Source: Actinomycetota bacterium
Lineage (GTDB): Bacteria; Actinomycetota; Thermoleophilia; BMS3ABIN01
DNA length: 64,000 nucleotides
Direction: 5' to 3'
Assembly: GCA_016235065.1 (NCBI GenBank)
Contig: JACRMB010000005.1
Location: forward strand, 9,524-73,523
Part shown: piece after piece, positions 7,924-53,157 of the stretch
Position numbering within the stretch: the stretch's first letter is position 1
Layout: the number at the start of each line of letters is the position of its first letter
The notes under the pieces: generated by a model
The model's database searches: none
Told to the model about the DNA's origin: nothing
The model's input: the letters and a program-made list of their open reading frames with translations, nothing else
Program-made: the position numbers and the translations under genes

Positions 7924-8508
7924 CTAATCAGCCCCGGTTTTCGCGATAACCTGTTTGCTCACGTTCTTCAGCGCTTCAAACACGCCGACTCCAGTAAGCG
8001 CGCAGGATCCTACTGCTGGCGATTTGGTGTGGTTCAGAAGTTCATCTAGGTCGCCTTCAGAGAAGATATCGCTGAGATCCCGCTTGTTATACTGCATGAC
8101 CAGCCCCAGATCCATTGGATTATCGCCCTGGTCCTGCAGGTTGTCCCACATGTTCATATATGCCTCTATGTTATCGTCAAGGCGGTTTATCTCGGAATCG
8201 ACGACGAAAACGATGCCGTCGACTCCCTGGATCACAAGCTTGCGGCTGGCGTTGTACTGCCGCTGTCCTGGAACGGTATAGAGGTGAAACCGGGTCTGCA
8301 GCCCCCTGACCTTGCCCAGGTCGAGAGGCAGGAAGTCGAAATAGAGCGTCCGCTCCTCTTCGGTGGCTATGGATACAAGCTTACCCTTCACCTGGGGGTT
8401 AACCTTGCGGTAGATGTATTGCAGGCTGGTGGTCTTGCCTCCGAGGGCGCAACCATAATAAACGATCTTGTAGTTGATCTCTCCCGCAGCCAGGTTGATC
8501 AGCGCCAT
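7924..8508 (-). CDS. mglA: MglA-type Ras-like small GTPase
   Basis: 194 aa with INYKIVYYGCALGGKTTSLQYIY, ERTLYFDFLP, FHLYTVPGQ and YNKRDL. It is near-collinear with Myxococcus MglA. The start ATG overlaps the mglB stop (TAATG). Confidence 0.85.
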   Translation of the reverse strand: MALINLAAGEINYKIVYYGCALGGKTTSLQYIYRKVNPQVKGKLVSIATEEERTLYFDFLPLDLGKVRGLQTRFHLYTVPGQRQYNASRKLVIQGVDGIVFVVDSEINRLDDNIEAYMNMWDNLQDQGDNPMDLGLVMQYNKRDLSDIFSEGDLDELLNHTKSPAVGSCALTGVGVFEALKNVSKQVIAKTGAD

Positions 8509-8915
8509 TATTCCTCTCCTTCTGACAAAAAAGCCTCAGCCAGTGAATCGACGGCTCTCCTGGTTATCAGCCTCACCCTGCCGATATCACTCGACCGGCG
8601 AAAGCAGACGACCAGCAGAACTTCGGGCGATACCTGGGCAATATGGATATTGATCTTTGCTCCTTCATGCAGCATGACCGTATGGGCAGAATCTTCGACC
8701 ATGCTGGCAAGCAGGCGGGACGCCGCGAACGAACCCGCCGCCAGTGAGGCGATGGCGTCCGAATCAGCCAGCTTCGTGGATGATATCACGCTGATGGGTT
8801 GCCCTGCAGTGGATACGAGTCCCAGATACTCCGGTGATATGGCGTTCCTCAACTGCTGCAGAATGCGTGTCGCCGCCTCTATCTGGGAACTGAGAATTGT
8901 CTGGTTTTCGCCCAA
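8508..8915 (-). CDS. mglB: Roadblock/LC7-domain protein, MglB-like GTPase-activating partner
   Basis: 135 aa with a TTG start. The motifs SLAAGSFAAS, HEGAK, LLVVCF and IGRVRL match the MglB pattern. It lies immediately upstream of and is coupled to mglA. Confidence 0.78.
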   Translation of the reverse strand: MGENQTILSSQIEAATRILQQLRNAISPEYLGLVSTAGQPISVISSTKLADSDAIASLAAGSFAASRLLASMVEDSAHTVMLHEGAKINIHIAQVSPEVLLVVCFRRSSDIGRVRLITRRAVDSLAEAFLSEGEE

Positions 8916-9075
8916 TAGCCTCGAATTGCCCTTCGCTTTGCCCGGGAATGACCTTCAATATTGCTTATCGGCAGCTTGATAAACCGCCATCACCCCACCG
9001 TAGCGCTCTTACAGTGCCACCAGTTTCCTGCCATCAGGCCACCAGTTGCCCGTACCGCCATTTCTCAAGCTGAAG

Positions 9076-9104
9076 TTGAACCTTGGTTGTAACGGGAATA
9101 TAAT
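9076..9104 (+). promoter_or_regulatory. Candidate sigma70-type promoter TTGAAC-N17-TATAAT
   Basis: TTGAAC lies at 9076-9081 and TATAAT at 9099-9104, about 30 nt upstream of GTG 9134, which has a GGAGG SD. Confidence 0.5.
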
Positions 9105-9133
9105 GATTCAAACCTAGTCCGCGGAGGTCAAAA

Positions 9134-9406
9134 GTGGAAAATCTTCCTGAGCTTTCAAGCCTGTCTGACAAGGAGCTCAAGTCCCTGATAAGGGAGCTTG
9201 TCACCCAGGAGCAGGAGTTTAGTTATCAGCGCCGCATATTGCACGGCAAGATCGATATCCTGAGGGCAGAGCTGGTGCAGAGGCTGTCTGGAAAGCGTGA
9301 TTCTGGAGAGTCGCTCATTTCTGCCGATGATGTCAGCAAGCTGACAGACATCCTCGCCAAGGGAGACCGCTATTCCCTGGGTGGTAATCCGTCAGAGAAG
9401 AAGTAG
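9134..9406 (+). CDS. RsiG-like coiled-coil protein (candidate single-motif c-di-GMP-binding anti-sigma factor)
   Basis: 90 aa with a GTG start after GGAGG. It is predicted helical and has no TM segment. Residues 26-41, EQEFSYQRRILHGKID, match E-x3-S-x2-R-x3-(Q/H)-x3-D. Confidence 0.5.
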   Translation: MENLPELSSLSDKELKSLIRELVTQEQEFSYQRRILHGKIDILRAELVQRLSGKRDSGESLISADDVSKLTDILAKGDRYSLGGNPSEKK

Positions 9407-9469
9407 GCAGGTTTAGGCCGGCGGCCAGCCGGAAAAAAATGATCGTGTTCATCAAGGGGAGGAGTCAGA

Positions 9470-9742
9470 GTGCCAGAGCGTTTCGCCAGGCTTGTAGGAG
9501 CCATCCAGCATCTTTTTGAAGACATGGGAGTCGATGTCGTGGAGGAGCGGGTGCTGAATTTCATCCTCCAGGAGATCCATTGCGGCAAGACCCTGGAGGA
9601 GGCTCTCGACGAGCCCTATGTGGTAAACAACACCAAGCCGGCCTGGAGGCGCGAGATACTCGAGCGCCCGGAGATCATCAAGGCTGTTGAAGAAGAAGTT
9701 GACCGTACCTTTGAAGGACATAAGGGTGATTGTGGAAAGTGA
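9470..9742 (+). CDS. Hypothetical protein
   Basis: 90 aa with a GTG start after GGGGAGGAG. Its stop overlaps the next start (GTGA). No domain recognised. Confidence 0.55.
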   Translation: MPERFARLVGAIQHLFEDMGVDVVEERVLNFILQEIHCGKTLEEALDEPYVVNNTKPAWRREILERPEIIKAVEEEVDRTFEGHKGDCGK

Positions 9743-10209
9743 CCAGGGTATATTGCCACGAGTGCGGCTTCCAGAATACCGAGGAAGGCAAGTACTGCAG
9801 TAAGTGCGGTGCACTTCTCCCGGAGGAGGAAGCAGGCCCTGAGGCGACGATCCGCTTTTCTCCGGAGTCGGAAGAGCGCGAATCCGAATTTGACAGCCTC
9901 ACCGAGGTGGCAAAGGAAGGCGTATCGCTGGTAGTACGGAGCGGGGGAGGCCTCGCGGGGGAGACCTTCGAGCCCGCTGGCCAGAAGACGACCATCGGCC
10001 GTCACCCTGACAGCGACATCTTCCTGGACGACATCACCGTTTCCCGAAACCACGCCGTGCTGATGCAGAAACCCGATGGATTCTATATCCAGGATCAGGA
10101 CAGCCTCAACGGCACTTATGTGAACCGCGCGCGGGTAGAGACCCAGAAGCTCACAGACGGTGACCAGGTACAGATCGGGAAATACAAGCTAACCTACATC
10201 GAACGATGA
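9739..10209 (+). CDS. Zinc-ribbon plus FHA domain protein (GarA/OdhI-position homologue)
   Basis: The N-terminus has CHECG...CSKCG. The C-terminal FHA domain reads TIGRHPDSDIFLDDITVSRNHA...DSLNGTYVN. GTG 9739 overlaps the upstream TGA; the ORF-track TTG 9730 is also possible. Confidence 0.85.
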   Translation: MTRVYCHECGFQNTEEGKYCSKCGALLPEEEAGPEATIRFSPESEERESEFDSLTEVAKEGVSLVVRSGGGLAGETFEPAGQKTTIGRHPDSDIFLDDITVSRNHAVLMQKPDGFYIQDQDSLNGTYVNRARVETQKLTDGDQVQIGKYKLTYIER

Positions 10210-10934
10210 GCGACGAAGGCGGCTCCAGCGCCACGAACAAGGCTCTCACGATAGGCGCTGTCGTAGAGCTTCTCAAGTCAGAGTTCTCTGACATCAGCAT
10301 CAGCAAGATCCGATATCTCGAAGATGAGAAGCTGATCTCACCCAAACGGACAACAGGCGGTTACCGGCTTTTTTCCAAGGCCGACATCGAGCGGCTGCGA
10401 ACTATCCTCTCCCTTCAGCGGGACGAATTCCTGCCGTTGAGGGTCATCCGGCAGGAGCTTTCCCGCAAAGGTACGGTAGCGGTCAGGCCAGCCAGCGGCA
10501 GGCGATTCAAGAAAGTCAGCCTGAAGGCGCCAGCTGCGTCTGATACCAAGAGCTATACCCTGGATGAGGCCCTGGAAGCCTCAGGGGCCGAAGGCGAGCT
10601 TGTTCGTGAACTCGAGGAGTACGGGCTTATCAGCGGTGTGTCGACCGGCGGCACCCGCCGGTACGACCAGACAGACGTCGAGGTCATGGCGGCGGCGTCA
10701 GACCTGGCGCAGTATGGAGTCGGCGCCCGCAACCTCAGGACGCTCAAGAGTTCAGTAGACCGCGAGTCGGCGCTGCTGCTGCAGATCCTCTCGCCGACCC
10801 TGCGCTCGCAGAATCCGCAGTCACGAAAAGAGGGCGTTGCTGCACTCGAGAACCTGGCGACGGTATCCTCATATCTCAAGCATCTGCTTCTTATAAAAGA
10901 CCTGAGAAATTACACAGCGTCTTTGACCAAATGA
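10206..10934 (+). CDS. MerR-family transcriptional regulator (FtsR/Rv1828-like position)
   Basis: 242 aa with the MerR HTH LTIGAVVELL...ISISKIRYLEDEKLISPKRTTGGYRLFS. There is an ATGA overlap with the FHA gene. Confidence 0.85.
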   Translation: MSDEGGSSATNKALTIGAVVELLKSEFSDISISKIRYLEDEKLISPKRTTGGYRLFSKADIERLRTILSLQRDEFLPLRVIRQELSRKGTVAVRPASGRRFKKVSLKAPAASDTKSYTLDEALEASGAEGELVRELEEYGLISGVSTGGTRRYDQTDVEVMAAASDLAQYGVGARNLRTLKSSVDRESALLLQILSPTLRSQNPQSRKEGVAALENLATVSSYLKHLLLIKDLRNYTASLTK

Positions 10935-11001
10935 TAGATAATTAGTCAATTCAATGGACGTGCCCACGCGTCCGCAAACTGCTGAAAGGAGCAAAGGATT
11001 C

Positions 11002-11523
11002 ATGGATCTGGCCGCAAAGATTAGAGACATCCCCGATTTTCCCAAGGAGGGGATCCTTTTCAAGGATATAACCCCGCTGCTTCAGGACGCGGAATCGCTG
11101 AGGTACGCCATCGACCAGCTGGCGGAGTTCGGAGTGGGGAAGAAGATCGATGTCGTAGTCGGCGCCGAAGCCAGGGGGTTCATCCTTGGCGCCGCCCTGG
11201 CATACACCCTGGGGGCAGGTTTTGTGCCCGCCAGAAAGCCTGGAAAACTGCCGTTTCTTACCGTCGCGGCCGAGTATGACCTCGAATACGGAACCGATAG
11301 CCTGGAAGTCCATAACGACGCCATCGTCCCGGGAACCAGAGTCCTGGTGCACGACGACCTGCTGGCAACCGGGGGAACCGCCCGCGCCAAGTGCGACCTG
11401 GTAGAGAAGCTGGGTGGCGAAGTGGTGGGGGTGACCTTTATCGTCGAATTGTCGTTCCTTGGCGGCCGCGAGAAGCTCAAGGAGTACGATATCCTGAGTC
11501 TGATAACTTTCGACGGCGAGTAG
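11002..11523 (+). CDS. apt: Adenine phosphoribosyltransferase
   Basis: [27 protein letters not shown] is followed by the PRPP motif [16 protein letters not shown] 11002 is preferred over the longer ORF-track start. Confidence 0.93.
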
Positions 11524-11567: not shown

Positions 11568-11597
11568 GGAGGTGCTCGTTAGAGCGCCTCCTTTTTC
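11568..11597. terminator. Rho-independent terminator between convergent apt and the RlpA-like gene
   Basis: A 10-bp stem GGAGGTGCTC/GAGCGCCTCC (one G-U pair) with loop GTTA is followed by TTTTT. An A-rich tract lies on the other side. Confidence 0.7.
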
Positions 11598-12638
11598 TTA
11601 ACGGTAGATCTCGGCGCTGATGTAGCCCACACCGGTGATGCCGATAGCCTGGGCGCTCGAGTATGAAAGATCGAGGATCCTTCCGCCAACATAAGGACCG
11701 CGGTCATTGATCCGGACAAAAACTGATCGCCCATTATGGGTCACCTTCAGCCAGGTGTTGAACGGCAGTGATTTGTGGGCGGCGGTATAGCCATACATGT
11801 TGTAGATCTCGCCATTGGCGGTCGTGTTCCCCTGAAATCCGGGACCATACCAGCTGGCCATGCCATTGAGGGCTATCCCGGAAGGCTGAAGTCCCGCAGG
11901 CGGTTCGTTGGATACGATCACGGAAGGTCCCATGACGCCGGTATAGATGCTGCCGGCATCGATCGATGCGGATTCCTCGGCAAGCCTCCTGAGCTCTTCT
12001 TCCTGTTCACGGGTCCGGGCCTGGGCCAGCTCAGCTGTCTGTCTGTCGATGCTGGATCTGCCGGTCGCGAGCTGATATTCCAGCTCCTTTTTCCGTGACT
12101 TGAGGGCGTTTGTGTCCCCAGCCTGGTCCTGTTTGAGGCTGTCTACACGCTCTCTGGCCTCGCGGACCGTGTCTGCTTCGGCTTTAACCCGCTTTACCAG
12201 GCGTTCGTCGTTTTCTGAAACCTTGCCAAGATATGCAAGACGGGCAAGCGCGTCAGTGAAGTCCTCGCTTGAAAGAGCTACCTCGTAAAAACTGGAATCC
12301 CCAAGCTTGTAGATGGCCGATATTCGGCCCTCGTACATCAGAAGCGTCGAATGATAACGGTCTTCAGCATAACGCAGCCGGTCAGTCGCGTCAGCAAGCT
12401 CCATACGGCGCTGATTGAGGTAGACTTCGGAGCTTGCGAGCCTGCTGTCGATGTCCGTCAGCTCCTGCCTGGCTTTCTCCATTTCCTGCTTTTCGGCCTC
12501 GATCCTGCCAGCGATGTCCTGAGAGCTGTTCTCAGCGCCTGCGACGGAGACAGCGATCAGCAGACTGCAGCAAATCGATGCAGCAAAAAGGATTATCGAA
12601 ATCCGGGAATATTTTCGATCACTGATGATCTGTCGCAT
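11598..12638 (-). CDS. RlpA-like double-psi beta-barrel (lytic transglycosylase-like) protein with N-terminal anchor and long coiled coil
   Basis: 346 aa with a TM/signal segment and a Glu/Arg-rich coiled coil. The C-terminal DPBB reads ASWYGPGFQGNTTANGEIY...FVRINDRGPY. Confidence 0.8.
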   Translation of the reverse strand: MRQIISDRKYSRISIILFAASICCSLLIAVSVAGAENSSQDIAGRIEAEKQEMEKARQELTDIDSRLASSEVYLNQRRMELADATDRLRYAEDRYHSTLLMYEGRISAIYKLGDSSFYEVALSSEDFTDALARLAYLGKVSENDERLVKRVKAEADTVREARERVDSLKQDQAGDTNALKSRKKELEYQLATGRSSIDRQTAELAQARTREQEEELRRLAEESASIDAGSIYTGVMGPSVIVSNEPPAGLQPSGIALNGMASWYGPGFQGNTTANGEIYNMYGYTAAHKSLPFNTWLKVTHNGRSVFVRINDRGPYVGGRILDLSYSSAQAIGITGVGYISAEIYR

Positions 12639-12984
12639 GACATTATTCCATTTCCCTAAAAAGGCCCTGAACTAACAGGGAACTCGAGCTATGCGCAATC
12701 CGTGGCATCTATCGACACGGACCGCAGAGAGTTTAGTACAAAAGAGGGGAGGTTTCACAGCGCTTGAGACAGAACAGGAAATTAATTTCTAAAGTTACAT
12801 AACATATATTATCGTGCACGAATGGAGGAGGGCCGAAAAGCGCCGGGTAGGCCAGGACCTGCCGAACTGTCTGAATGGATTGCTTTTACAGGCATACTGC
12901 CTGTTCAGGGAGATTCTGCTGAATTACTGCAGCGCGAATCCGGACGGATACGGGGAAATGCCGGGATGTGGCATGAAAAGCGTT

Positions 12985-14670: not shown

Positions 14671-14737
14671 ACCGGGACTAAGCCTAACGATTTTAGAAGG
14701 GAAAGTACAAGGAAATACTGAACAGCGGGGGCAACTT

Positions 14738-15787
14738 CTATTTGTGGGCCTTATCGATCTCTTCGAAAAGCGCGTCCACCAGTTCATCGGCGGGTACCTT
14801 GCGGATCGGTTCGCCATTGGCAAAGACCAGCCCCTCCCCCTTGCCTCCAGCGATGCCAAAATCAGCTCTCCGGGCTTCGCCGGGGCCATTGACCACGCAA
14901 CCCATCACTGCTATTTCAATCACTTTGTCGTAATCACTCAGGCGCCGCTCAACTTCAAGGGCGATGCCCTCGACATCGATCTCGGTTCTGCCACAGGTCG
15001 GGCAGGAAATCAACTCGGGGCCATATTCTCTGAGGCCGAGACTGCGCAGGATCTCGTAAGCGACCCGTATCTCTTCCACGGGATCTGCCGTAAGCGAGAC
15101 CCTGATGGTATCCCCCACTCCCTGCGCCAGTAGTGCACCGATGCCGACGGCGCTCTTGATGGAACCGGCCCAGCGGGTCCCGGCTTCGGTAACGCCAAGG
15201 TGGATTGGATGATCCAATAGCCTTCCCAGGGCCAGGTTTGCCTCGATGGTCTCGGTGACTGAAGAAGATTTGGCTGAGACCTTTAGTTCCTGGAAGTCGA
15301 GTTCCTCAAAAAGGGTTACATAATCGAGGATGGTCTCAACCAACGCCTGCACGAGATCCCGCTCGGCCAGCTCGCGTTTCTCTTTAGGCAGGGAGCCGGA
15401 ATTGACGCCGATGCGCACTGGAATGCCGGCCTCGCGTGCTGCGTCTAACACCGCGGCAACCCGTTCGCGACTGCCGATGTTCCCGGGATTGATCCTGAGG
15501 CCGTCTGCGCCAGCTGCGACCGCGGCGATGGCCAGCTCCGCCTTGAAGTGGATATCGGCGACGACCGGCAGCGGCGATTCGGCCACGATCGCCGAAAGCG
15601 CCTCAACCGCGGCTTCGTCAGGGATGGCGACCCGCACGATCTCACAACCATATGCCGCCAGGCTACGGATCTGGCCTAGGGTGGCTTCGGCGTCGCGGGT
15701 ATCGGTGTTAGTCATCGACTGGACCGCGACCGGCGCGCCACCGCCGACCGGGACGTTTCCTACCGTTATCTGCCTCTTGCTGGCCAT
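14738..15787 (-). CDS. ispG: 4-hydroxy-3-methylbut-2-en-1-yl diphosphate synthase
   Basis: 349 aa with VGGGAPVAVQSMTNT, SCPTCGR and MGCVVNGPGE. Confidence 0.94.
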   Translation of the reverse strand: MASKRQITVGNVPVGGGAPVAVQSMTNTDTRDAEATLGQIRSLAAYGCEIVRVAIPDEAAVEALSAIVAESPLPVVADIHFKAELAIAAVAAGADGLRINPGNIGSRERVAAVLDAAREAGIPVRIGVNSGSLPKEKRELAERDLVQALVETILDYVTLFEELDFQELKVSAKSSSVTETIEANLALGRLLDHPIHLGVTEAGTRWAGSIKSAVGIGALLAQGVGDTIRVSLTADPVEEIRVAYEILRSLGLREYGPELISCPTCGRTEIDVEGIALEVERRLSDYDKVIEIAVMGCVVNGPGEARRADFGIAGGKGEGLVFANGEPIRKVPADELVDALFEEIDKAHK

Positions 15788-16863: not shown

Positions 16864-16868
16864 GAGGA

Positions 16869-18809: not shown

Positions 18810-18815
18810 CGTGGC

Positions 18816-20137: not shown

Positions 20138-20179
20138 CTGGCCTCCCTGGCGCTTCCTTGGGCTTACTTTGCTTACTGG

Positions 20180-34653: not shown

Positions 34654-35946
34654 ATGCCCATGCCTCCCATCCTTCAGGTAGCTCTGGACTTTTTGGATCT
34701 GCCGCGGGCGCTCCAGGTCGCGGATGAAGCCCTGAAGGGCGGCGTCGACTGGATCGAGGCCGGCACGCCGCTGATCAAGAGTGAGGGTCTCGAGGCGGTC
34801 CGGCAGATGAAGCGGCGCTGGCCGGACGCGGTGATCGTCGCTGACCTCAAGACCATGGACGCCGGCCGCTTCGAGATGGAGTCGGCTGCGAAAGCCGGGG
34901 CACAGGTCGCCGGCGTTCTCGGGGCCGCTTCCGACGCTACTATCGCCGAGTGTATCGAAGTCGCTCGCAACTACGGCTTGCGGGTGATAGTCGACATGAT
35001 CGAAGTCGTTGACCCCGTGGAACGCGCCCGCCAGGTCGAGAAGATGGGCGCGGATTACGTGGGCATCCATACGGCCATCGACCAGCAGATGCAGGGAAAG
35101 GCCGATCTGGAACTCATCCGCAGGATCAAGGCAGCAGTGTCGATCCCCGTCTCTGTCGCGGGGGGTATAAATTCCGAAACAGCCGCCGATGCAGCCGCCG
35201 CCGGCGCCGATATCATCGTAGTCGGCGGAGCGATAATCAAAGCGGCAGACGCCGAGCTGGCCGCGCGCCAGATCAGGCAGGCGATCGATTCCCGGCGAGG
35301 TGTTGAAACGACCCTTTACAAGCGAGCGAGCGGCACTGATATCCTTCCCGTTTTAAGCCAGGTATCGACGGCCAATATCTCCGACGCGATGCACAGAAGC
35401 GGCGAGCTCACGGGATTGATGCCCGTATACAGTGGAATCAGGATGGCAGGCCCGGCATTCACAGTGCGGACGTTCCCCGGAGACTGGGCTAAACCGGTCG
35501 AAGCCATCGATCTTGCCCGGAAAGGCGATGTGATCGTGATCGACGCCGGCGGCGCCGGCCCTGCCGTCTGGGGTGAGCTGGCGACCCACAGCGCCCGCGA
35601 GCGGGGCATCGCCGGTGTGGTCATCTACGGAGCAGTGCGTGATACTCCAGAGATAAGAGAGCTGGAATTTCCGGTATTTGCTAGCATATTCACGCCCACT
35701 GCCGGCGAGCCAAAAGGATTCGGGGAAGTCGATGTGCCGGTAAACGTGTCCAGGGTGAAGATAAATCCTGGCGACTGGCTGGTCGGCGATGATGACGGCG
35801 TCGTCGTCATTCCGAAAGCAAAAGCCATCGAGGTGGCAAACCGGGCGATGGACGTTCTGGAGAGGGAAAACCGTCTACGGAAAGAGATCCAGGATGGCAG
35901 CACCCTGAGCCAGGTGGCCTACCTGCAGAAGTGGGAAAAGACCTAG
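34654..35946 (+). CDS. Fusion of 3-hexulose-6-phosphate synthase (OMPdecase-fold) and an RraA-like domain
   Basis: 430 aa. The N-terminal half has ILQVALDFLDL...IEAGTPLIK...VADLKTMDAG...GIHTAIDQQ. The C-terminal half has NISDAMHRSG...GPAFTV...GDVIVIDAGG...WGELAT...GVVIYGAVRD. Confidence 0.8.
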   Translation: MPMPPILQVALDFLDLPRALQVADEALKGGVDWIEAGTPLIKSEGLEAVRQMKRRWPDAVIVADLKTMDAGRFEMESAAKAGAQVAGVLGAASDATIAECIEVARNYGLRVIVDMIEVVDPVERARQVEKMGADYVGIHTAIDQQMQGKADLELIRRIKAAVSIPVSVAGGINSETAADAAAAGADIIVVGGAIIKAADAELAARQIRQAIDSRRGVETTLYKRASGTDILPVLSQVSTANISDAMHRSGELTGLMPVYSGIRMAGPAFTVRTFPGDWAKPVEAIDLARKGDVIVIDAGGAGPAVWGELATHSARERGIAGVVIYGAVRDTPEIRELEFPVFASIFTPTAGEPKGFGEVDVPVNVSRVKINPGDWLVGDDDGVVVIPKAKAIEVANRAMDVLERENRLRKEIQDGSTLSQVAYLQKWEKT

Positions 35947-36176
35947 TCCGAACTGTTCTTGATGCGGATCACTTTATGCAGCCTGGTCCGCACATCTCCG
36001 GGCATCTCCGGGGCGGGGATTTCCCGGTACATGGTCACCGTCCTCCTGAGAGTGTTGACCACGACGCGGCAGTTGTAGCAGTCCTTGAGATGGCCCTCGA
36101 TCTCGCGGCAGGTCTTTTCTGCTAGATCCTCATCGATATATTCAGAGAGCCCTTCGAGTATTTCCCGGCAATCCAT
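35943..36176 (-). CDS. Soluble zinc-binding (ZAS, RsrA/RshA-like) anti-sigma factor
   Basis: 77 aa with no TM segment. An N-terminal Cys precedes the H-x3-C-x2-C motif (HLKDCYNC). It lies directly downstream of the ECF sigma gene. Confidence 0.8.
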   Translation of the reverse strand: MDCREILEGLSEYIDEDLAEKTCREIEGHLKDCYNCRVVVNTLRRTVTMYREIPAPEMPGDVRTRLHKVIRIKNSSD

Positions 36177-36178: not shown

Positions 36179-36784
36179 CTAACCTGTCTCCCCTGTGAAG
36201 TAATCTGACAATCTGTTCCTGAGATACAGGCGTGCCCTGTGCAGTCGTGATTTCACCGCAGGGATAGAAAGATCAAGTACCTTTGCGACTTCCGCTGCGG
36301 GCATGCCTTCCACGTCCCTTAACACGAAGACGACCCGATATTTGTCGGGCAGCTCCGCAACAGCCTCGTCCATGACCTGCCGTGCCTCATCGTTAAGCAG
36401 CTTTTCCGCTGGACCACCTGACCAGTCGACCATGGATGTCTCCGAGTGGGCGGCATCCTTGATGGAATATACTTCATCCAGAAATTCCCCTTCGCTTTTC
36501 TCTCTCCTGCTCTTCTGGCGCAGTTTGGTCAGGGCGGCGTTGGCGGCGACCCTGTAAAGCCAGGTCGAAAAACTCGACCGGCTCTTGAAACCGTCAATAG
36601 ACCTGACGACGTTTAAAAAAGTATCCTGCAAAACGTCCTCTGCGTCTTCCTTGTTCCCCAGCATCCTGTAAGCGAGGCTGTAAACCCTGCTTTCATACCG
36701 GGACATAAGGGCTTCCAGGGCATCAGCGTTACCGTCCCTGATCTCATCTATCAGTTCATTGTCGGTGGGAACTGTATTCTCCAT
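36179..36784 (-). CDS. ECF-type RNA polymerase sigma factor (SigH/SigR-like context)
   Basis: 201 aa. Region 2 reads YSLAYRMLGNKEDAEDVLQDTFLNV...FSTWLYRVAAN. Region 4 reads VFVLRDVEGMPAAEVAKVLDLSIPAVKSRLHRAR. Confidence 0.88.
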   Translation of the reverse strand: MENTVPTDNELIDEIRDGNADALEALMSRYESRVYSLAYRMLGNKEDAEDVLQDTFLNVVRSIDGFKSRSSFSTWLYRVAANAALTKLRQKSRREKSEGEFLDEVYSIKDAAHSETSMVDWSGGPAEKLLNDEARQVMDEAVAELPDKYRVVFVLRDVEGMPAAEVAKVLDLSIPAVKSRLHRARLYLRNRLSDYFTGETG

Positions 36785-37846: not shown

Positions 37847-39235
37847 CTAGTAGTGGATCGAGACTATGGTGCCCATGGGCGTCCAGTTGAAGAGGTACTC
37901 AGCTTCGTCCAGTGGCAGTCCAACGCAGCCATGGCTGGTAGGTGTTCCAAAAGTCGTTGACCAATAGTTCCCGTGGATGGTGTAATCGCCATTGAACATT
38001 AGTACCCAGGGAACGTTTGGCGCCACATAACCCTCTCCCCTCATATCCAGCTTCTCTGCCTTGGCATAAACCGCATAGGTGCCAGTTAGACTCGGTGTCG
38101 CCTGGGAACCGCTGGAGCAGATCATCGTCCTGACCAGCTTGTCATTGTCGTATAGATAGACCTTCTGCTCGGTCAGGTTCACATCGATCTGTTTCGACGG
38201 CTTTGCCGTGAACGAGCTTTCAACATCCTGTCTGAGGTAGCTGCCGCTGACACCGCGGAATGCTTCAGTTCCACCCTTTACGCGGATAGTGGCCTTCTGG
38301 CCTTGAGTCCATTCGGCGAGCGGTTTGAATTCAATCGTGTCGGGTGAGATCCAGTCCCATCCTCCCAGAACCTGCGGATCGAAGGATATTATCGACTCCG
38401 CGATCTCTGGATTCTTGATATCCTCGCTGAAAGTCAGAGTCGGGCGCGTGCTCAGGCTGACTCCGGACTCGCCGTCTCCCGGAACGAAGAATATCTTCAG
38501 CGGATTAGTCGTAGTCACCTTCTGCGAGTAAGGCTTCAGCATACCGGCGCCATTATCGGCGGTAGCACTTGTGACCGTCAGAGTGTATTCCTTGCCCTGC
38601 TCGTATCCCTCGAAGGATATGAATGCCCTGGTCCTGTTCTCTTCATCGAGCCTTGAGGTCGACTGGAGTTCGGGGCTGATCTCGTAAGAAAAAGTCTCTA
38701 CGGGTGTATTGAACTCGATGATGATCGGCTCACCGATTGGAACCGTCTGTGTTCCCTGGGTGAATACGGGAGCGGGTGTGGTTATCGTCTGGAAGGAAGC
38801 GCTTTCGCTCACCTCTTTCTTCCTGGGGCCGGTCATGGTCAGCTCGGTCAGCTCCGCATCGACCTTCACCTCATAACGGGAATCGGGCCGCAGCAGCGGC
38901 CCGCCGTCTGATCGCGTGAAGACATCACCATTCAGGCTGCCCTCAATGATCTTGTCGCTGACGGTCGCCCCCAGCGGATCCAGCGTGACTTCCCTGACGC
39001 TGACGTTTTTGACCTCCCCCCGCATCCAGCTGGTGAAGATCTGCAGCTGCTGGTCGATGGTGACATCCTTGCTGCCGTTCTCTGGCTTTATCTTTATCTC
39101 GGGGGGGAACAGTGAGGCCATGGACAGGTAGCCCAGGAATACCACCGCGATAAGCGTAGCCCCAATGACGAATGCTGTATTACGCCTGACTGAACCAGCT
39201 GATTTTGAGTTTTGTACTGGAGTTGCCCTGCTCAT
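37847..39235 (-). CDS. L,D-transpeptidase (YkuD domain) with N-terminal anchor and Ig-like repeats
   Basis: 462 aa. The C-terminal catalytic region is YTIHGNYW...TSHGCVGL. The N-terminus has a TM anchor. Confidence 0.85.
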   Translation of the reverse strand: MSRATPVQNSKSAGSVRRNTAFVIGATLIAVVFLGYLSMASLFPPEIKIKPENGSKDVTIDQQLQIFTSWMRGEVKNVSVREVTLDPLGATVSDKIIEGSLNGDVFTRSDGGPLLRPDSRYEVKVDAELTELTMTGPRKKEVSESASFQTITTPAPVFTQGTQTVPIGEPIIIEFNTPVETFSYEISPELQSTSRLDEENRTRAFISFEGYEQGKEYTLTVTSATADNGAGMLKPYSQKVTTTNPLKIFFVPGDGESGVSLSTRPTLTFSEDIKNPEIAESIISFDPQVLGGWDWISPDTIEFKPLAEWTQGQKATIRVKGGTEAFRGVSGSYLRQDVESSFTAKPSKQIDVNLTEQKVYLYDNDKLVRTMICSSGSQATPSLTGTYAVYAKAEKLDMRGEGYVAPNVPWVLMFNGDYTIHGNYWSTTFGTPTSHGCVGLPLDEAEYLFNWTPMGTIVSIHY

Positions 39236-39313
39236 ATGACGCTGCCCCTGGTTGCTTCAATAGACTGTATTCATTATAGCGGCCTCAACCCGGAGAGCAA
39301 AAAACGCTCATGT

Positions 39314-39342
39314 TTCAAGGATGATCTCATAAGGTCGATATT
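39314..39342 (+). promoter_or_regulatory. Candidate promoter TTCAAG-N17-GATATT placing a TSS just 5' of the riboswitch
   Basis: TTCAAG lies at 39314-39319 and GATATT at 39337-39342. An alternative is TTGCTT-N17-TATAGC at 39252-39280. Confidence 0.3.
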
Positions 39343-39349
39343 TAGTGTA

Positions 39350-39432
39350 CAAGTGCGAAAAGGCAAACCCATCGCGAGGTGGGGGCGCAAAGCTAGGGGT
39401 CTCCTCCGGAGACAGCCCGGCCGCCGAAGCTC
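39350..39432 (+). promoter_or_regulatory. c-di-GMP-I (GEMM-I) riboswitch aptamer
   Basis: GGCAAACC lies at 39362-39369. A 6-bp stem CCCAUC/GGUGGG is capped by the GNRA loop GCGA. CGCAAAGC lies at 39386-39393, followed by a second hairpin GUCUCC-UCC-GGAGAC. The element order and spacing match the Vc2 aptamer. Confidence 0.8.
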
Positions 39433-39474
39433 TGTAAGCTGTTCTTTAATGAACAGCGTTGACGTGTTGCAGTC

Positions 39475-39516
39475 AGCTCATCTGCTCCGACATCACCGGG
39501 CGGTTGAGCTTTTTTT
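39475..39516 (+). terminator. Intrinsic terminator forming the riboswitch expression platform
   Basis: An imperfect ~13-bp stem (AGCTCATCTGCTCC ... GGGCGGTTGAGCT) is followed by a run of 7 T. It lies upstream of the 39584 ORF. Confidence 0.7.
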
Positions 39517-39583
39517 GTGTCCTCACCGGGTGCGCCAGGCGCAAGCTTGACAGCGACGTGGTTTGTCCATCAAACGGCAGGCG

Positions 39584-40003
39584 ATGATGGACACGGTAAA
39601 CAGAGAAAAGCAGAATTTCAGGATGATCATCCTGGCTCTCGCAGTTCTCGTTTGCGCCTGGTTGCTTCCCACAGGCGTAGGAATAGCGGCTTCGGCATCG
39701 AGCAGTATGAAAGTCACGCTTGTCGTCGAGGACGCGGTCGGTGTGAACTATGGCAGGTCGGCGCTTGACTCCGGCTCCGTGGGCAGGGCAGGTCAGGTCA
39801 TCACAAAGTTTGTCACTCGGACGGCATCGTCAAGGCTCGCTGGAATGGCAGTGGATGAAGCGAGAGACCCGCAAGTAGATGATAGCGGAGTTCCGTTTGG
39901 GTCCGGAACAGACACAGGCCCGGACGATGCCGTGTCGGGTGGCGTACTTGATAGAAGCGAATCAATGGAAAGCGAAGTTGTAGTCACAGTAAGCAGTCTG
40001 TAG
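39584..40003 (+). CDS. Small secreted protein of unknown function (riboswitch-controlled)
   Basis: The signal peptide is REKQNFRMIILALAVLVCAWLLPTGVGIAASA. The mature part is ~100 aa, Ser/Asp/Gly/Val-rich, with no recognisable domain. The start is uncertain (ATG 39584/39587 or TTG 39563). Confidence 0.6.
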   Translation: MMDTVNREKQNFRMIILALAVLVCAWLLPTGVGIAASASSSMKVTLVVEDAVGVNYGRSALDSGSVGRAGQVITKFVTRTASSRLAGMAVDEARDPQVDDSGVPFGSGTDTGPDDAVSGGVLDRSESMESEVVVTVSSL

Positions 40004-40301
40004 AAAAGCGTCCCTCGTCGGCTCCAAAACCGACATCAGCTTTGGCGGCATGTATCTTGCCCGAATCCCTCGCTGGGATGGATACAGCCGCCGAAGCTTT
40101 CTTCTCCGGAAAAGATTTGCCACTTCCCTGATTGAAGGAAACCAATAAGGCTATGTAGAAAAAGTTATCGCGGCATCCGGATTCCGTGCGGCCGCATCTT
40201 CGGGAACGTCATCCGTGGCAGTAATTTCTTTATTTTTGAGTCATGTTCCATGCTCAAAAAGGCCACGGCGGGTTCGGGTATCGCATCAGAACAGGAGATC
40301 A

Positions 40302-40757
40302 ATGGATATACAAAAGATGGTTGATGAGCGCATCGAGGAACTTCTTGCCAGGAAAAACATCTCTTATCCCACACCGGAAAATCAGGATGAAGTCCCAAGT
40401 GATGAGTTGTCTGATCTTGGCGATGTCATCGAGGAAGCAATGATGGAAGTCGCTGAACGAGTGCTTGCCATCTCCGACCGCGTTGCAGGTGATTTCGCCC
40501 GGATGGAAAAAGATATCCTCGATTCACGATTAGCAGTTCTTCAGAGCGCTGAGGCTGTTCTTGATATAGCTGTTTCACTAAGGCGCAAGGCGAAAGCGCT
40601 GACATCAGCCTCTGTGGAACCTGCCAGGAAGAGGACTGTCAGAGACGACGAGCTGCATCTCGTGGACGATATTTATGATCTTGAAGCCCTCGGCCTGCAG
40701 GACGGCCGAGCCAGTATGCACGATCATGGAGTCGCGTCCCTGTTCAGAAGGACCTGA
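40302..40757 (+). CDS. Hypothetical helical/coiled-coil protein
   Basis: 151 aa from ATG 40302, which follows AGGAGA. Its stop abuts the start of the GGDEF gene. Confidence 0.55.
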   Translation: MDIQKMVDERIEELLARKNISYPTPENQDEVPSDELSDLGDVIEEAMMEVAERVLAISDRVAGDFARMEKDILDSRLAVLQSAEAVLDIAVSLRRKAKALTSASVEPARKRTVRDDELHLVDDIYDLEALGLQDGRASMHDHGVASLFRRT

Positions 40758-41840
40758 TTGCCTGAAAGGCGGTTCATCCCTCATATGGATCAGGGCAAAC
40801 TGAACGAATTGAGAGAGTTTTCTGTTTCCGTCGCAGCTGAAGGCAGGAATGATGAATGCCGTCCAGCTTCTACGACAGGCTCTTATCCTCTGTTGACCCG
40901 GAAGGCTGCTGTCTCCCTCAAGAGACGTGAGACCCAGGTTATCAAAGGCTGGCTCAAGGAGGTCATCGACAGTCTGGGTCTGCCCTCCCTTCAGGCATTC
41001 CCGACAAGTGAGCTCGCGGCAGGATTCCCGGCTGTAATCGACGGCGTCGCCGAGGCTATCGCCGATCCGTCAGCTGCGCATTCGCGGCATAGAGAGGTAG
41101 CCGAGATCTCGGGCCTTCTGGCGCGGCTTCGCAAGGAAGATGCCAGCATCGAGAGGTTTGTGGACGACTACTCCCTGCTGAAAAGCCTGATGTTCGATGC
41201 GGCTGCGGCAGACTTGCGGCAATCTGACATGGCCGTTCTGAGTATCACCCGAAATCTCGAGGAAGGATTCAACACAGTCCTCAAGGAAGGCCTCAAGGCT
41301 TATGTTGAGCAGCACTCGTCAAGGCTCCAGCATCTTGCTGACACCGATGCTTTGACCGGCCTGTACAACGTGAGATACTTCCGCAGCCAGCTGCACAAGA
41401 ACCTGGAGATGTACAAGCGCTATCGGATCCCCTTCTCGCTTCTCATGCTCGATATGGATAACCTCAAACAACTCAATGACGCTCGCGGCCACCAGTCAGG
41501 CGATCTTGCACTGAAGCATCTGTCGGCGATCATGGCTGACGAGAAGCGTGAGACTGATATCGCTGTGAGATATGGCGGCGACGAGTTCTTCCTGGTGTTG
41601 CCGGGGACCGGAGCCGCTGATGGCGAGCGACTGGCTTACCGTATCGTCCGCCGTGTTCGGCAGCTCAACATCCACTCGGGCGGCAGGGATATCGCCGGTG
41701 TCTCAATCGGAGTCGTATCCTGTCCGGACAACGGTTCTGACGTCGGAACCCTGAGAGCGAAAGCTGATCGGGCGCTCTACCTCGCCAAAGCGATAGGCGG
41801 CGCTTCGGTAGCCAGCTTTCAGGAATTCCACGAATCCTGA
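40758..41840 (+). CDS. Diguanylate cyclase (GGDEF) with an uncharacterised N-terminal sensor region
   Basis: 360 aa with DALTGLYNVRYF and a RETD I-site located 5 aa before RYGGDEFFLVL. The start is TTG 40758 directly after the upstream TGA, or ATG 40785. Confidence 0.88.
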   Translation: MPERRFIPHMDQGKLNELREFSVSVAAEGRNDECRPASTTGSYPLLTRKAAVSLKRRETQVIKGWLKEVIDSLGLPSLQAFPTSELAAGFPAVIDGVAEAIADPSAAHSRHREVAEISGLLARLRKEDASIERFVDDYSLLKSLMFDAAAADLRQSDMAVLSITRNLEEGFNTVLKEGLKAYVEQHSSRLQHLADTDALTGLYNVRYFRSQLHKNLEMYKRYRIPFSLLMLDMDNLKQLNDARGHQSGDLALKHLSAIMADEKRETDIAVRYGGDEFFLVLPGTGAADGERLAYRIVRRVRQLNIHSGGRDIAGVSIGVVSCPDNGSDVGTLRAKADRALYLAKAIGGASVASFQEFHES

Positions 41841-49353: not shown

Positions 49354-49540
49354 ATGGCTCAGAAATAGTAGTAGGAATGGAGTTGCCCTGCTTATACAGT
49401 ATATCGGCATGCCAAAAAGCGAGCTTGATTTACCTGGAGAAAGCAAGACACCCGCCGGAGTGGTTCCGACGGGTGTCTGGTATTTCTATTTAGTGCCTGG
49501 CCCCTGGTCAGGGGTCACCATCCGCTGTGTGCCTGATCGT

Positions 49541-50479
49541 CTATCCCGGCACGATGCCCAGATTTGCGTTGCCGCTGTGGCCTTTCTCACGCGCTTCAGC
49601 TTCTTCGAGATCGACATTACCGGTATAGACCTGGTTCTTGCCTCGACGCTTTGCTTCGTACATGCGCGCGTCGGCGATCTTGACAAGCCTGTCACCAGCG
49701 TCGGCATCCACGCCGAAGGAAGCGAGGCCGACTGATACGGTGATACTCCGCTTGACGTTCGGGTCTGCGAACGTCGAACACCTCTCTTCGACGCTGGAAC
49801 GCAGGCGCTCGGCGACTCTGCAGGCTGTATCGAAATCACAGCCGAGTATAAGGGTGAACTCCTCACCGCCATAGCGTGAAGCTATATCCTCACCCCGTGC
49901 TTCGGCGGTGATCGTCTGAGCGACCTTCTGCAGCACATAGTCACCTTCCTGATGACCGAACTGGTCGTTGTACAGTTTGAAGTCGTCGATGTCCAGGAAC
50001 AGGACCGTCAGATTTGTGCCGTCGGTCCTGAGGCTACTGACCTTGTTCACGAGGTACGTCTGGAAGAAACCGTGGGTGTAGAGCGACGTCAGATCATCCG
50101 TGGTTGACTGCCGCCTCAGCTTCAGGGTCTCCCTGTGCTCTGAAGTGAACATGTAGTAGAAGCCTATGGCGAACAAAAGGATGAAGATGAATTCCGTAGC
50201 CTCGTACATGGTACCGACATATGCGACGCCCAGGTCCTTCATCACGGACAATGTCATGGCAATGCCGAAAGAAACAGCCGCCAGGCTCAGGAACAGCCAT
50301 GACCGTTTTCTCACGTCGCGGCCGATGGAGGGCAGGATGCGGATTGCGAAGTAAAACGCGATCAGCGCCAGCACCAGGCTTGCAAACTCGAGAACGGTCT
50401 CAAGCATCTCCTCGCCTTCTTCGACCGCGCCTCCCTCCTGGGCTATCAGACTCATGAATGAGAATAGTTCAGTTTTCAT
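49541..50479 (-). CDS. Membrane-anchored diguanylate cyclase (GGDEF)
   Basis: 312 aa with ~4 TM helices and DDLTSLYTHGFF. A RGED I-site lies 5 aa before RYGGEEFTLIL. Confidence 0.88.
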   Translation of the reverse strand: MKTELFSFMSLIAQEGGAVEEGEEMLETVLEFASLVLALIAFYFAIRILPSIGRDVRKRSWLFLSLAAVSFGIAMTLSVMKDLGVAYVGTMYEATEFIFILLFAIGFYYMFTSEHRETLKLRRQSTTDDLTSLYTHGFFQTYLVNKVSSLRTDGTNLTVLFLDIDDFKLYNDQFGHQEGDYVLQKVAQTITAEARGEDIASRYGGEEFTLILGCDFDTACRVAERLRSSVEERCSTFADPNVKRSITVSVGLASFGVDADAGDRLVKIADARMYEAKRRGKNQVYTGNVDLEEAEAREKGHSGNANLGIVPG

Positions 50480-50596
50480 TTTTTTACTCCCCCTTACTTT
50501 ATTTAATGCTGGTTTGAAGTTTTATATGCACACTTTATCGGCAAAATAAGCATTTGCTTTGCCGGTTATTTTTCGTTGTCTGCATTCATATATTAA

Positions 50597-53062
50597 TCAG
50601 ACCCCCATCCGTGCTTCCCGTTGGGTGCTGCTTTCAGATTTGATGATCCGTGCAAACACATCAACTACTCGAGGGTCGAACTGGGTTCCTGTGTTACGCT
50701 CCAGTTCGCCCAGGGCCATCTGGGTGGACAATGCCTTGCGATAGGGCCGGTCGGAAGTCATCGCCTCATAGGCGTCCGCCACAAAAAGGATCCTGGCGCC
50801 GAGAGGATTCTCTTCGCCGCCCAGTCCATCGGGATAGCCATTGCCATCGTAGCGTTCATGGTGATGGCGCACTATCGACTGCACAGGGAACGGGAAGTTG
50901 ACTGGAGCGAGGATCTTCTCGCTGAGAACCGGGTGTTTCTTGATGATGTTGAACTCTTCGACAGTCAGTTTCCCGGGCTTGGAAAGGATCGCGTCTGGAA
51001 TGCCGATCTTGCCCACATCATGAAGGTAGCCCGCATACCGGATCGTCTGCAGTTCGGCTCCCTGGAGTCCCAGTCCTCTGGCTATCGCTTCCGCATAAAG
51101 CGATACGCGTTCAGAGTGGCCCCTGGTGTATGTATCCTTGGCATCGATGGTCTCGGCAAGCGATCGGATGGTGCCAACAAAAGCGTCCTGAAGATTCTCA
51201 TACATCCGGGAATTCTCAATGGCGATCGCAGCTTCGTTTGCAGAAGTGGTCAGCAGGTTCATCTCATTTTTCTTCAGCTCGCGGGGCTCTGCGAAATATA
51301 TGCAGATAACGCCGATGCTCTGCCCTTTTGCGAGCAGAGGCAATGCCACGAGTGACGAGTAGCCCTGAATGCTGGCTACATGTTTCCACTGGGCGTAAGT
51401 ATTGTCCGAGACGACATTGTTCACGGCGAATGGCCTGTTCTCTGTAAATGCCATGCCAATCGGCCCAAAACCGATGGGGATCCTGCGCTTGCGATTGATA
51501 GTCCAGACATACTCGGCGGAAAGGTTATAGCTGGCGACAATATTGAGGTGCCGGTCCTCCTCGTCGGGAAGCAGTACGGAGGCGAACTGGGCTCCGATCA
51601 GGGCGCCCACCCGCTTTGCCACGACGCTTACGACTTCCTGGTAGTCGAGGGTCGAAGTGAAAGCCTGGCTTATCCTGTGCATGGCGGAGAGCTCTTTGAC
51701 GTGGCCTTCGGTCTTCTCATACAGCTGAGCGTTCTCGATTGCCACTGCAGCCTGGTTCATCAGGGTTTGATAGAACTCAATCTTCTTGGCGCTGAAGGGA
51801 GTACGGTCCCAATTGCGCACTTCACCGAGGGTAACGACACCGATCGCCTCGTTTTTGGAGACCAGAGGCAGAAGCAGAGCCGACTTGGTGTCGGATGTCA
51901 GGGCCCATTCCCACTCAGCTTCAGAACCCTCGACGGAGAGTTGCCCATTATGGCGAAGGACACACGGTTTGCTGGAAGCCAGCACATTTGCGTGATGTCG
52001 GGCTTCAGTCAGGTCGAGGCTATCCCCGATGCCCCGGTTCCATTCCGGCATGTCCCTGGTCGGGGATGCCGCCTTGACTATCAGGCTGCTGCTATCGCCA
52101 TCGAGCAATGATATCCGGCAATAGCTCACCCGCTGCGACGCGGCTATCTTCTCGCACAATATCTGGAGTATCTTCTCTACCTTCAGGGCTGAGGAAACAG
52201 CTACGCTTGCCTCCAGCAACAACTGGACTTCCTCGTCCCGGGCATTCAGATTGGCGGCCATCTCATCAAAGGCCGAAGCCAGGTCGCCAATCTCGTCGTC
52301 CCGGTTCAGGCTGAGTGGCTGGAGGCTATCGTGAGCGCTGATCTCTCGTGTTGCGGCTGTCAGCTTCTTGATAGGCCTGATCAGCATACGATTCAGAGAT
52401 GCGTATATAACCGCAAGCAGTATCAACAGCGCCAGGTTTGTTATGAGGGCAAAACGGATCTGTTGAGAACGGATCAGGCTGTCCCGCGGGGCTGCGTCGA
52501 GGTAAACACCCACAGACGCGATAGCATTGCCGCTGGCATCGTGAAGGGGGGCGAGCATCTCGATAGTCTTTTCTTCGCCTGCCTCAGCGCCTTCTCCGGC
52601 TGCTTCCTCTTCCTCTTCGATAAAAGTAGTCTCATTGTTGAGGATCGGCTTGATGTCCACGAGGTCAGCTGATTCTCCCATGGAATCTTTGTCTGTACTC
52701 GCGATTACGACGTAGGACGGATCGGCTGCGTTAGACGATTGAGCAGGAGACAGTCCATAGATGGAGATCTTCCTGAGTTCCTCGTTAGTCTTAACGAGGT
52801 TGTCGATCTCCGGCTGGATATGGTCGCCTAACGAGGGACTTTCCAGGCTCGCCAGGCTTGCTTCGATGAAACCGGCGACGGACTCCGCGCGATGCTCGTA
52901 ATCCTTGTTTACTGCTGAAGAAAGATAGCTCGAGGTGTACAAAGTCATGGCAGCCGAAAGCGCCAGAACTGCAAGGAAGATGAGAATTGACAGCTTGCCG
53001 CGCAAGCCGAATTTATGTCTGATACTCACCAGGTTCCGCCCCAGGAAGAGTACGTGAATCAA
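50597..53062 (-). CDS. Membrane sensor HAMP-GAF-GAF-HD-GYP c-di-GMP phosphodiesterase
   Basis: 821 aa with a TM segment, an extracytoplasmic region, a second TM segment, a HAMP domain and two GAF-like regions. HSERV, YLHDVGKIGIP and HHERYDGNGYP follow. The start is TTG 53062 (uncertain). Confidence 0.85.
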   Translation of the reverse strand: MIHVLFLGRNLVSIRHKFGLRGKLSILIFLAVLALSAAMTLYTSSYLSSAVNKDYEHRAESVAGFIEASLASLESPSLGDHIQPEIDNLVKTNEELRKISIYGLSPAQSSNAADPSYVVIASTDKDSMGESADLVDIKPILNNETTFIEEEEEAAGEGAEAGEEKTIEMLAPLHDASGNAIASVGVYLDAAPRDSLIRSQQIRFALITNLALLILLAVIYASLNRMLIRPIKKLTAATREISAHDSLQPLSLNRDDEIGDLASAFDEMAANLNARDEEVQLLLEASVAVSSALKVEKILQILCEKIAASQRVSYCRISLLDGDSSSLIVKAASPTRDMPEWNRGIGDSLDLTEARHHANVLASSKPCVLRHNGQLSVEGSEAEWEWALTSDTKSALLLPLVSKNEAIGVVTLGEVRNWDRTPFSAKKIEFYQTLMNQAAVAIENAQLYEKTEGHVKELSAMHRISQAFTSTLDYQEVVSVVAKRVGALIGAQFASVLLPDEEDRHLNIVASYNLSAEYVWTINRKRRIPIGFGPIGMAFTENRPFAVNNVVSDNTYAQWKHVASIQGYSSLVALPLLAKGQSIGVICIYFAEPRELKKNEMNLLTTSANEAAIAIENSRMYENLQDAFVGTIRSLAETIDAKDTYTRGHSERVSLYAEAIARGLGLQGAELQTIRYAGYLHDVGKIGIPDAILSKPGKLTVEEFNIIKKHPVLSEKILAPVNFPFPVQSIVRHHHERYDGNGYPDGLGGEENPLGARILFVADAYEAMTSDRPYRKALSTQMALGELERNTGTQFDPRVVDVFARIIKSESSTQREARMGV

Positions 53063-53157
53063 GGCCTGCCCATGGCCTCAGTACATAATCGGCCGCTTCC
53101 AGTAAGGCTTTAGGACCGCACCTGGCATGACCGGGCGGAGTACCCGGTCAATAATGG

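Follow-up and report, generated by a model that had tools for sequence, protein, structure and literature searches.

The 64,000-nucleotide (nt) stretch analysed here, which we call the window, is part of contig JACRMB010000005.1 from an Actinomycetota bacterium of the class Thermoleophilia. Judging from genome loci, its lineage is an uncultured one of groundwater and the subsurface, with a medium content of guanine and cytosine (mid-GC). The window carries rsiG, a gene for a 90-residue protein. On the evidence of its sequence this is an ordinary single-motif RsiG, a member of a known family of anti-sigma factors from early-branching Actinobacteria that depend on cyclic di-GMP (c-di-GMP), a second messenger. 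Downstream of rsiG, on the same strand, lie a small gene that we call U90, a gene for a protein with a Zn-ribbon and an FHA domain, ftsR and an apt-like gene; mglB and mglA are divergent from it (Table 1). An initial annotation, made from the sequence alone, had described the open reading frame (ORF), its motif at residues 26-41 and the divergent mglBA pair, and all three are present as it described them.

The RsiG protein and its c-di-GMP signature

The initial annotation had read the gene as a single-motif RsiG homologue of the kind known from non-filamentous Actinobacteria, and had named a profile search as a check. This search matches the Pfam RsiG model (PF22802) far above its gathering cut-off (68.5 bits against 27, E 4e-19, residues 2-66). 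When the protein was compared with all PDB sequences using phmmer, RsiG chains were the only matches. The best is RsiG/AmfC from Streptomyces venezuelae (6pfj_T, E 1.2e-11, residues 5-55), and the Rubrobacter RsiG of 7lq2, 7lq3 and 7lq4 is matched over residues 5-80 with the motif helix aligned (E ~1e-8). No NCBIfam model matched the window RsiG. A database search found 5158 homologues, the nearest of which come from Thermoleophilia metagenome bins, and several orthologues that are 91-94% identical carry the NCBI name "RsiG family protein". Many of the listed protein matches bear no source name; among the matches listed, all those with a source name or title belong to Thermoleophilia, its orders or generic Actinomycetota. 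The window protein is called identically on six independent metagenome contigs.

Single-motif RsiGs were described in 2021 in exactly two classes, the Rubrobacteria and the Thermoleophilia (Schumacher et al. 2021, PMC8325347). Their homodimerisation rebuilds an antiparallel coiled coil, and has been shown by two-hybrid assays for five orthologues and by a crystal structure for one (PMC8325347). For the window protein an AlphaFold2 model was made with a 71-sequence alignment (mean predicted local distance difference test score, pLDDT, 82). It has helices at residues 12-53 and 64-80, after which residues 81-90 form a disordered tail, in agreement with the all-helical protein foreseen by the initial annotation. 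The predicted first helix (pLDDT >90) bears the c-di-GMP motif.

Residues 26-41 read E-QEF-S-YQ-R-RIL-H-GKI-D. The ORF is short, it has a GTG start and the motif fixes only five positions, all of which might suggest that the motif arose by chance in an unrelated or spurious reading frame. We regard this as vanishingly unlikely. A profile match of E 4e-19, thousands of homologues and six identical contig calls refute it, and the promoter, the Shine-Dalgarno sequence and the gene order are conserved as well. Furthermore, the six-frame ORFs of the window (66,973 residues) contain a single instance of the pattern E-x3-S-x2-R-x3-[QH]-x3-D, where on average 0.055 per window are obtained from residue shuffles.

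The canonical motif of Streptomyces RsiG has Gln at the fourth position (PMC8325347), and the initial annotation had treated the His of the window protein as a deviation from it. Could this exchange have abolished c-di-GMP binding, leaving a degenerate RsiG that is a ligand-independent coiled-coil protein, if active at all? The canonical Gln is the argument for this idea. However, among the sequences compared His is the norm of the clade and not a deviation: it is carried by 119 of the nearest 120 homologues and by 80/80 genome loci. The E, S, R and D of the motif are invariant in the 71-sequence alignment, Rubrobacter included, which bears out the motif conservation in orthologues that the initial annotation had named. 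Invariance of these four residues together with a near-universal His argues for purifying selection. The variant has also been tested already, in the RsiG of C. woesei. With its E(X)3S(X)2R(X)3H(X)3D motif this protein binds c-di-GMP with a dissociation constant of 25 uM alone and 1.7 uM with WhiG, and does not bind c-di-AMP (PMC8325347). In addition, His is common in helix 1 of twin-motif RsiGs, and it can make the same stacking contact (PMC8325347). We consider a degenerate protein very unlikely, and from the published work on orthologues the window RsiG is a predicted c-di-GMP binder.

Table 1. Features of the window discussed in the text (aa, amino acids)
Feature	Position	Strand	Remarks
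mglA-like GTPase gene	7924..8508	-	divergent from rsiG; Pfam Arf/small-GTPase
mglB	8508..8915	-	divergent from rsiG; Pfam Robl_LC7
GCCGATAA, sigma-28 -10-like	8965..8972	-	~50 nt upstream of mglB
Sigma-70-type promoter of rsiG, TTGAAC-N17-TATAAT	9076..9104	+	best site of the region; 10/12 consensus matches
Shine-Dalgarno sequence of rsiG, GGAGG	9123..9127	+	6 nt before the GTG start
rsiG	9134..9406	+	GTG start; 90 aa; single-motif RsiG-family protein (Pfam PF22802, PDB matches)
c-di-GMP-binding signature E26-x3-S30-x2-R33-x3-H37-x3-D41	9209..9256	+	in the long helix, residues 26-41
U90	9470..9742	+	90 aa; without a family in Pfam or NCBIfam; lies between rsiG and the FHA gene
Zn-ribbon and FHA protein gene	9730..10209	+	Pfam FHA 76 bits; Zn_Ribbon_1 at residues 8-28
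ftsR, MerR-family regulator	10206..10934	+	NCBIfam NF050798 FtsR_Actino 209 bits, cut-off 150
apt-like phosphoribosyltransferase gene	10954..11523	+	last gene of the putative unit; Pfam Pribosyltran on identical contig
Intrinsic-terminator-like site	11568..11601	+	first strong one 3′ of rsiG; 10-bp stem with 7 G-C pairs, then T-run
Sigma-28-type promoter TAAA-N15-GTCGATAG	12709..12735	-	before PcsB-like/DPBB gene 11598..12638
77-aa ORF	35943..36176	-	after the ECF sigma gene; weak resemblance to the zinc-binding anti-sigma (ZAS) factor RsrA
Extracytoplasmic function (ECF) sigma factor gene	36179..36784	-	201 aa; sole sigma-like ORF of the window
Sigma-28-type promoter TCAA-N16-GCCGATAT	49401..49428	-	before DUF4388 gene (Pfam)
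Sigma-28-like site CAAA-N15-GCCGATAA	50535..50561	-	before GGDEF gene 49541..50479; weaker
WhiG/sigma-28-type promoter TAAA-N15-GCCGATTA	53086..53112	-	before HAMP-GAF-HD-GYP gene 50597..53062

The WhiG of the lineage and its candidate promoters

No sigma-28 gene was found in the window, either by phmmer with Escherichia coli FliA or by tblastn with the WhiG of the clade described below; both matched only the ECF sigma factor of Table 1. The initial annotation had likewise reported an ECF factor as the only sigma here, which stands, and had called it ZAS-controlled, a label that is weak: the ORF after the sigma gene resembles RsrA with 35 bits against a cut-off of 62.5. It had also presented the missing WhiG neighbour as an oddity. 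A whiG far from rsiG is normal: in S. venezuelae, the source of the prototype, the distance between the two genes is ~1.5 Mbp (PMC7005675). Likewise, a sigma factor of FliA/WhiG length is found within 10 kb of rsiG in 0 of 80 Thermoleophilia loci. The only one with sigma-like ORFs at this distance is L059, and these two ORFs, of 539 and 395 residues, are long and not of FliA size. A 2026 preprint states that wherever RsiG occurs, a WhiG homologue of the WhiG2 clade occurs too (PMC12871210).

For a WhiG query we took pieces of the S. venezuelae and Rubrobacter radiotolerans proteins from PDB alignments. Genomes were then scanned for the WhiG2 signature Y.PLVKY.AGR by means of a codon-restricted DNA pattern, which gave the first Thermoleophilia whiG loci and, from them, a tight clade of 262-residue proteins, at least 84% identical, that bear the NCBI name WhiG. 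A scan with a clade-specific stretch places whiG, among the matches listed, in six sister metagenome-assembled genomes (MAGs). Three of these also hold rsiG loci (JAGVMV01, JAJRYJ01 and JAJYIM01), and three hold the locus orthologous to the HD-GYP gene of the window (JAUSDE01, JAJYLW01 and JBAZZU01). All six genes are full length (262 residues) and keep YAPLVKYVAGR with the Lys, Gly and Arg contacts to c-di-GMP of the solved complex, and the one from JAGVMV01 scores above the cut-off of the NCBIfam equivalog model for WhiG (361.8 against 343). Y.PLVKY.AGR is also present in sigma-28 factors from Bacillota, Brevinematales, Latescibacterota and Gemmatimonadota MAGs (L124-L243; e.g. L128, L144, L148, L159, L187 and L192), and the signature is therefore not exclusive to actinobacterial WhiG2.

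In this clade whiG always follows comM(yifB)-dprA-xerC (L244-L254, L339-L343); comM, dprA, xerC and whiG are all absent from the window. In the same loci a convergent DUF192 gene lies 3′ of whiG. After it come cytochrome, Rieske and cytochrome b genes in L244-L253 (within 4-kb flanks) and a mechanosensitive-channel gene in L342 and L343.

The three groundwater runs with the window also hold one contig that is collinear with the xerC-whiG region of JAUSDE01, at ~87% nucleotide identity. The depth of this contig in the three runs is 40.3, 7.56 and 6.16, and that of the rsiG contig is 39.6, 7.8-8.2 and 5.4-6.9. By the usual binning argument, equal abundance in three samples makes the whiG and rsiG contigs members of one population. 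The WhiG proteins P0127, P0145 and P0162 were traced to other runs, therefore the linkage between the window and a WhiG rests on contig depth. We conclude that the WhiG partner is encoded elsewhere in the genome, as it is in the Streptomyces prototype.

The window was scanned with the published WhiG2 consensus, TAAA-N16-GCCGATAA, and the sites were compared with the orthologous loci of relatives whose HD-GYP proteins are 57-85% identical. Three of the sites, before the HD-GYP, DUF4388 and PcsB-like genes, are islands of conservation in intergenic DNA that has diverged around them. Before the HD-GYP gene, CTAAAG-N..-CCGAT(T/G)A is kept in 8/8 orthologous loci, in flanks that have diverged. Before the DUF4388 gene all readable loci have a GCCGATA(A/T/G) -10 element, and the window, together with five of the seven related loci that are readable, also has a T(C/A)AA -35 element at a spacing of N15-16; L090 and L093 have only the -10-like GCCGATA(G/T). 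The DUF4388 gene (48652-49353, - strand) most likely starts at 49353, with ATGATTCTCTGGGG kept in all relatives, and not at the longest-ORF position 49446, so that its promoter falls inside the longer ORF call. The promoter before the PcsB-like gene is kept in L082 and L001-L004. Some 60 nt upstream of it lies the 25-mer TGCACGATAATATATGTTATGTAAC (12794-12818, - strand), which is near-invariant in these same loci amid diverging intergenic DNA and has no Rfam match.

The site upstream of mglB was aligned in seven sequences, namely the window, a 100%-identical contig, a near-identical contig and L001-L004. Its CCGATA core is invariant, whereas L001 and L004 differ from the whole 8-mer by one substitution. 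The GGDEF gene has a site in front of it that is only partly conserved in relatives and is therefore not counted as established. Other sigma-28-like sites were dismissed: the one at 47866-47892 is a chance match inside a TrkA-N coding region (G-A-D-K), and those at 38553, 13820 and 54622 lie inside genes.

These promoters suggest a trace of WhiG activity in the window, with a candidate regulon that comprises the HD-GYP, DUF4388 and PcsB-like genes and probably mglBA. The WhiG regulon of Rubrobacter includes diguanylate cyclase and phosphodiesterase genes (PMC8325347), and the mix of c-di-GMP turnover with surface and polarity genes in our candidate regulon parallels it. The initial annotation had left the partner of this RsiG open. 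We no longer regard it as open, given whiG in six sister MAGs, a contig of equal depth in the metagenomes of the window and conserved WhiG-type promoters.

A putative rsiG transcription unit

The TTGAAC-N17-TATAAT promoter and the GGAGG Shine-Dalgarno sequence that the initial annotation had reported for rsiG are both there, and both are conserved in four sister genomes (L001-L004). In these, the promoter is kept amid diverging flanks, as is the GGAGG or at least a GGAG core, and the mglBA-rsiG synteny holds. A terminator scan of the window found no strong terminator between rsiG and the end of apt. The gene had been placed upstream of an FHA-MerR operon; the FHA gene and a MerR gene of FtsR type are indeed present, but rsiG is better seen as the first gene of the unit. 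We propose a putative rsiG-(U90)-FHA-ftsR-apt unit, transcribed from a housekeeping-type promoter.

U90 is confined to the clade of the window: of the 80 Thermoleophilia loci, L001-L004 have it, with 61-84% identity, and the remaining 76 lack it. Its 3′ end overlaps the start of the FHA gene. An exhaustive search gave a small family of 56 cluster representatives, and one relative, P0366 (264 residues), is a fusion in which a Zn-ribbon-FHA protein has a U90-like N-terminus. The Zn-ribbon-FHA protein of the window scores 111.4 bits with the NCBIfam OdhI model NF041660, below the cut-off of 200. Given this score and the N-terminal Zn-ribbon, we use "OdhI/GarA-like" for the FHA domain only.

The order rsiG, Zn-ribbon-FHA, ftsR and apt (9134-11523 in the window) is kept in essentially all 80 Thermoleophilia loci (L001-L080), with apt after ftsR in most of them. 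The same order is found in Rubrobacter indicoceani and in uncultured Rubrobacteraceae (L336 5001-7271; L337 5001-7045), and in these Rubrobacter loci the stop codon of rsiG and the start of the FHA gene overlap by 4 nt. Conservation of the odhI/garA-ftsR pair in Actinobacteria is known, with an upstream region described as variable (PMC6683498). In the two RsiG papers searched, FHA, GarA and FtsR go unmentioned, and a literature search gave no paper that joins these terms. The linkage of rsiG with FHA-ftsR-apt in Thermoleophilia and Rubrobacter may be new.

Does this linkage mean that RsiG acts mainly within the operon that it heads? Its main partner might be the Zn-ribbon-FHA protein, FtsR or U90, instead of or besides WhiG, so that c-di-GMP would be tied to cell division. 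The gene order kept across some 80 Thermoleophilia loci and Rubrobacter speaks for this, as do the overlapping genes of Rubrobacter, the unit of the window, in which a strong terminator is lacking up to the end of apt, and a linkage that the RsiG papers leave unmentioned. That said, conserved gene order can mean co-expression without physical interaction. Co-purification with the WhiG of the same organism is documented for three RsiGs from Thermoleophilia and two from Rubrobacter, and the structure of the Rubrobacter complex has been solved (PMC8325347). A WhiG that retains the c-di-GMP contact residues is also present in the lineage. We think it unlikely that the main partner is a product of the operon. 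A broader version of the idea, in which RsiG or its bound c-di-GMP would feed the FHA/FtsR division module through a second partner or through stoichiometric co-expression that couples the WhiG switch to the division programme, also strikes us as improbable. If it were true, RsiG would ancestrally have done more than act as an anti-sigma factor.

A proposed c-di-GMP switch and its relatives

The reading that we prefer, and hold with considerable confidence, is that rsiG encodes a bona fide single-motif RsiG, whose c-di-GMP-loaded dimer would sequester a WhiG encoded elsewhere. By analogy with the Rubrobacter complex, two copies of RsiG would come together along their long helices (residues ~12-53) as an antiparallel coiled coil, and two facing E-x3-S-x2-R-x3-H-x3-D motifs would clamp a dimer of c-di-GMP. 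The loaded RsiG dimer would hold a sigma-28-type WhiG whose gene lies next to comM-dprA-xerC. When c-di-GMP falls, WhiG would be released and transcription would start from promoters of the TAAA-N15/16-GCCGATAA type. Its targets would be the HD-GYP phosphodiesterase, the DUF4388 protein, the PcsB-like cell-wall protein and probably mglBA. If the HD-GYP gene is WhiG-dependent, freed WhiG might lower c-di-GMP further, which would make a positive feedback loop. For homodimerisation, c-di-GMP binding, WhiG sequestration and the direction of the switch we infer from published work on orthologues.

Some of our results weigh against this reading. A Foldseek search of the RsiG model against the PDB gave nothing significant, with fibrinogen coiled coils as the best match (E 0.83). 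This was expected, because a two-helix protein has no discriminating fold, and the identity of the protein therefore rests on sequence profiles. Among the matches listed there is no whiG for the rsiG-bearing sister MAG JAJZQT01, nor for JBAZWE01 and CAJVWY01, two MAGs that we know from their HD-GYP loci only; MAGs in general are incomplete. The link between the whiG contig and the window consists of equal depth in three samples and of the sister MAGs, not of physical linkage. The sigma-28-type promoters are consensus matches backed by conservation and not mapped transcription starts, and the mglB site comes without a conserved or recognisable -35 element.

How does the proposed switch compare with known systems? 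By published description, the RsiG of C. woesei is alike in being a small single-motif protein of the Thermoleophilia with the same His variant. Two-hybrid assays show that it interacts with itself; it is also a c-di-GMP binder, and its WhiG co-purifies with it (PMC8325347). The window RsiG differs in belonging to another, uncultured, mid-GC groundwater lineage, and is ~57-69% identical to the RsiGs of soil Solirubrobacterales and Thermoleophilaceae. Its operon carries the extra U90 gene, and mglBA lies next to it.

The RsiG of R. radiotolerans (PDB 7LQ2, 7LQ3 and 7LQ4) is likewise a single-motif anti-sigma factor, homodimeric in Rubrobacter, and Rubrobacter genomes share the rsiG-FHA-ftsR-apt order. 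However, R. radiotolerans RsiG has Gln at the fourth motif position, and the Rubrobacter homologues are ~33-39% identical to the window RsiG overall. The Rubrobacter WhiG regulon centres on type IV pilus genes, none of which were noted among the ~35 annotated genes of the window. S. venezuelae RsiG (AmfC; PDB 6PFJ and 6PFV) is the founding member of the family, with c-di-GMP-dependent sequestration of WhiG and an rsiG gene unlinked to whiG. It differs from the window protein in being a twin-motif, 24-kDa monomer that holds both coiled-coil helices in one chain, and it controls the sporulation genes whiH and whiI.

As a member of its family, the window RsiG is one more from an uncultured lineage. 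The structure, ligand and partner of the family are already established, and close orthologues have already been named by automatic annotation. The initial annotation named the right family, and what had looked unusual to it is the norm in published work. What goes beyond the literature that we found is the rsiG-FHA-ftsR arrangement and the inferred WhiG regulon, and we offer both as hypotheses. The regulon would be a first sketch of this kind for anaerobic groundwater Thermoleophilia. It would extend the picture from Rubrobacter, in which the switch controls surface behaviour as well as its own second-messenger pool. The arrangement has rsiG fixed ahead of FHA-ftsR in each of the two basal classes of Actinobacteria, and links it to a conserved cell-division regulator.

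The window holds some further features. An Rfam c-di-GMP-I-GGC riboswitch aptamer lies at 39354-39429 on the + strand, scoring 61.8 bits where the gathering score is 59. It precedes two ORFs without a family (39563..40003 and 40215..40757) and the GGDEF gene 40758..41840, and overlaps a probably spurious ORF (39212..39550). Genes and elements of c-di-GMP are thus dense within 45 kb, with the HAMP-GAF-HD-GYP protein (821 residues), two GGDEF proteins (49541-53062 on the - strand, 40758-41840 on the + strand), RsiG and the riboswitch. Finally, a housekeeping string on the - strand (12985-22663) reads uppS-cdsA-dxr-rseP-ispG-proS by Pfam on the identical contig; for the genes upstream of this string, rpsB-tsf-pyrH-frr is suggested by ORF sizes and position only.

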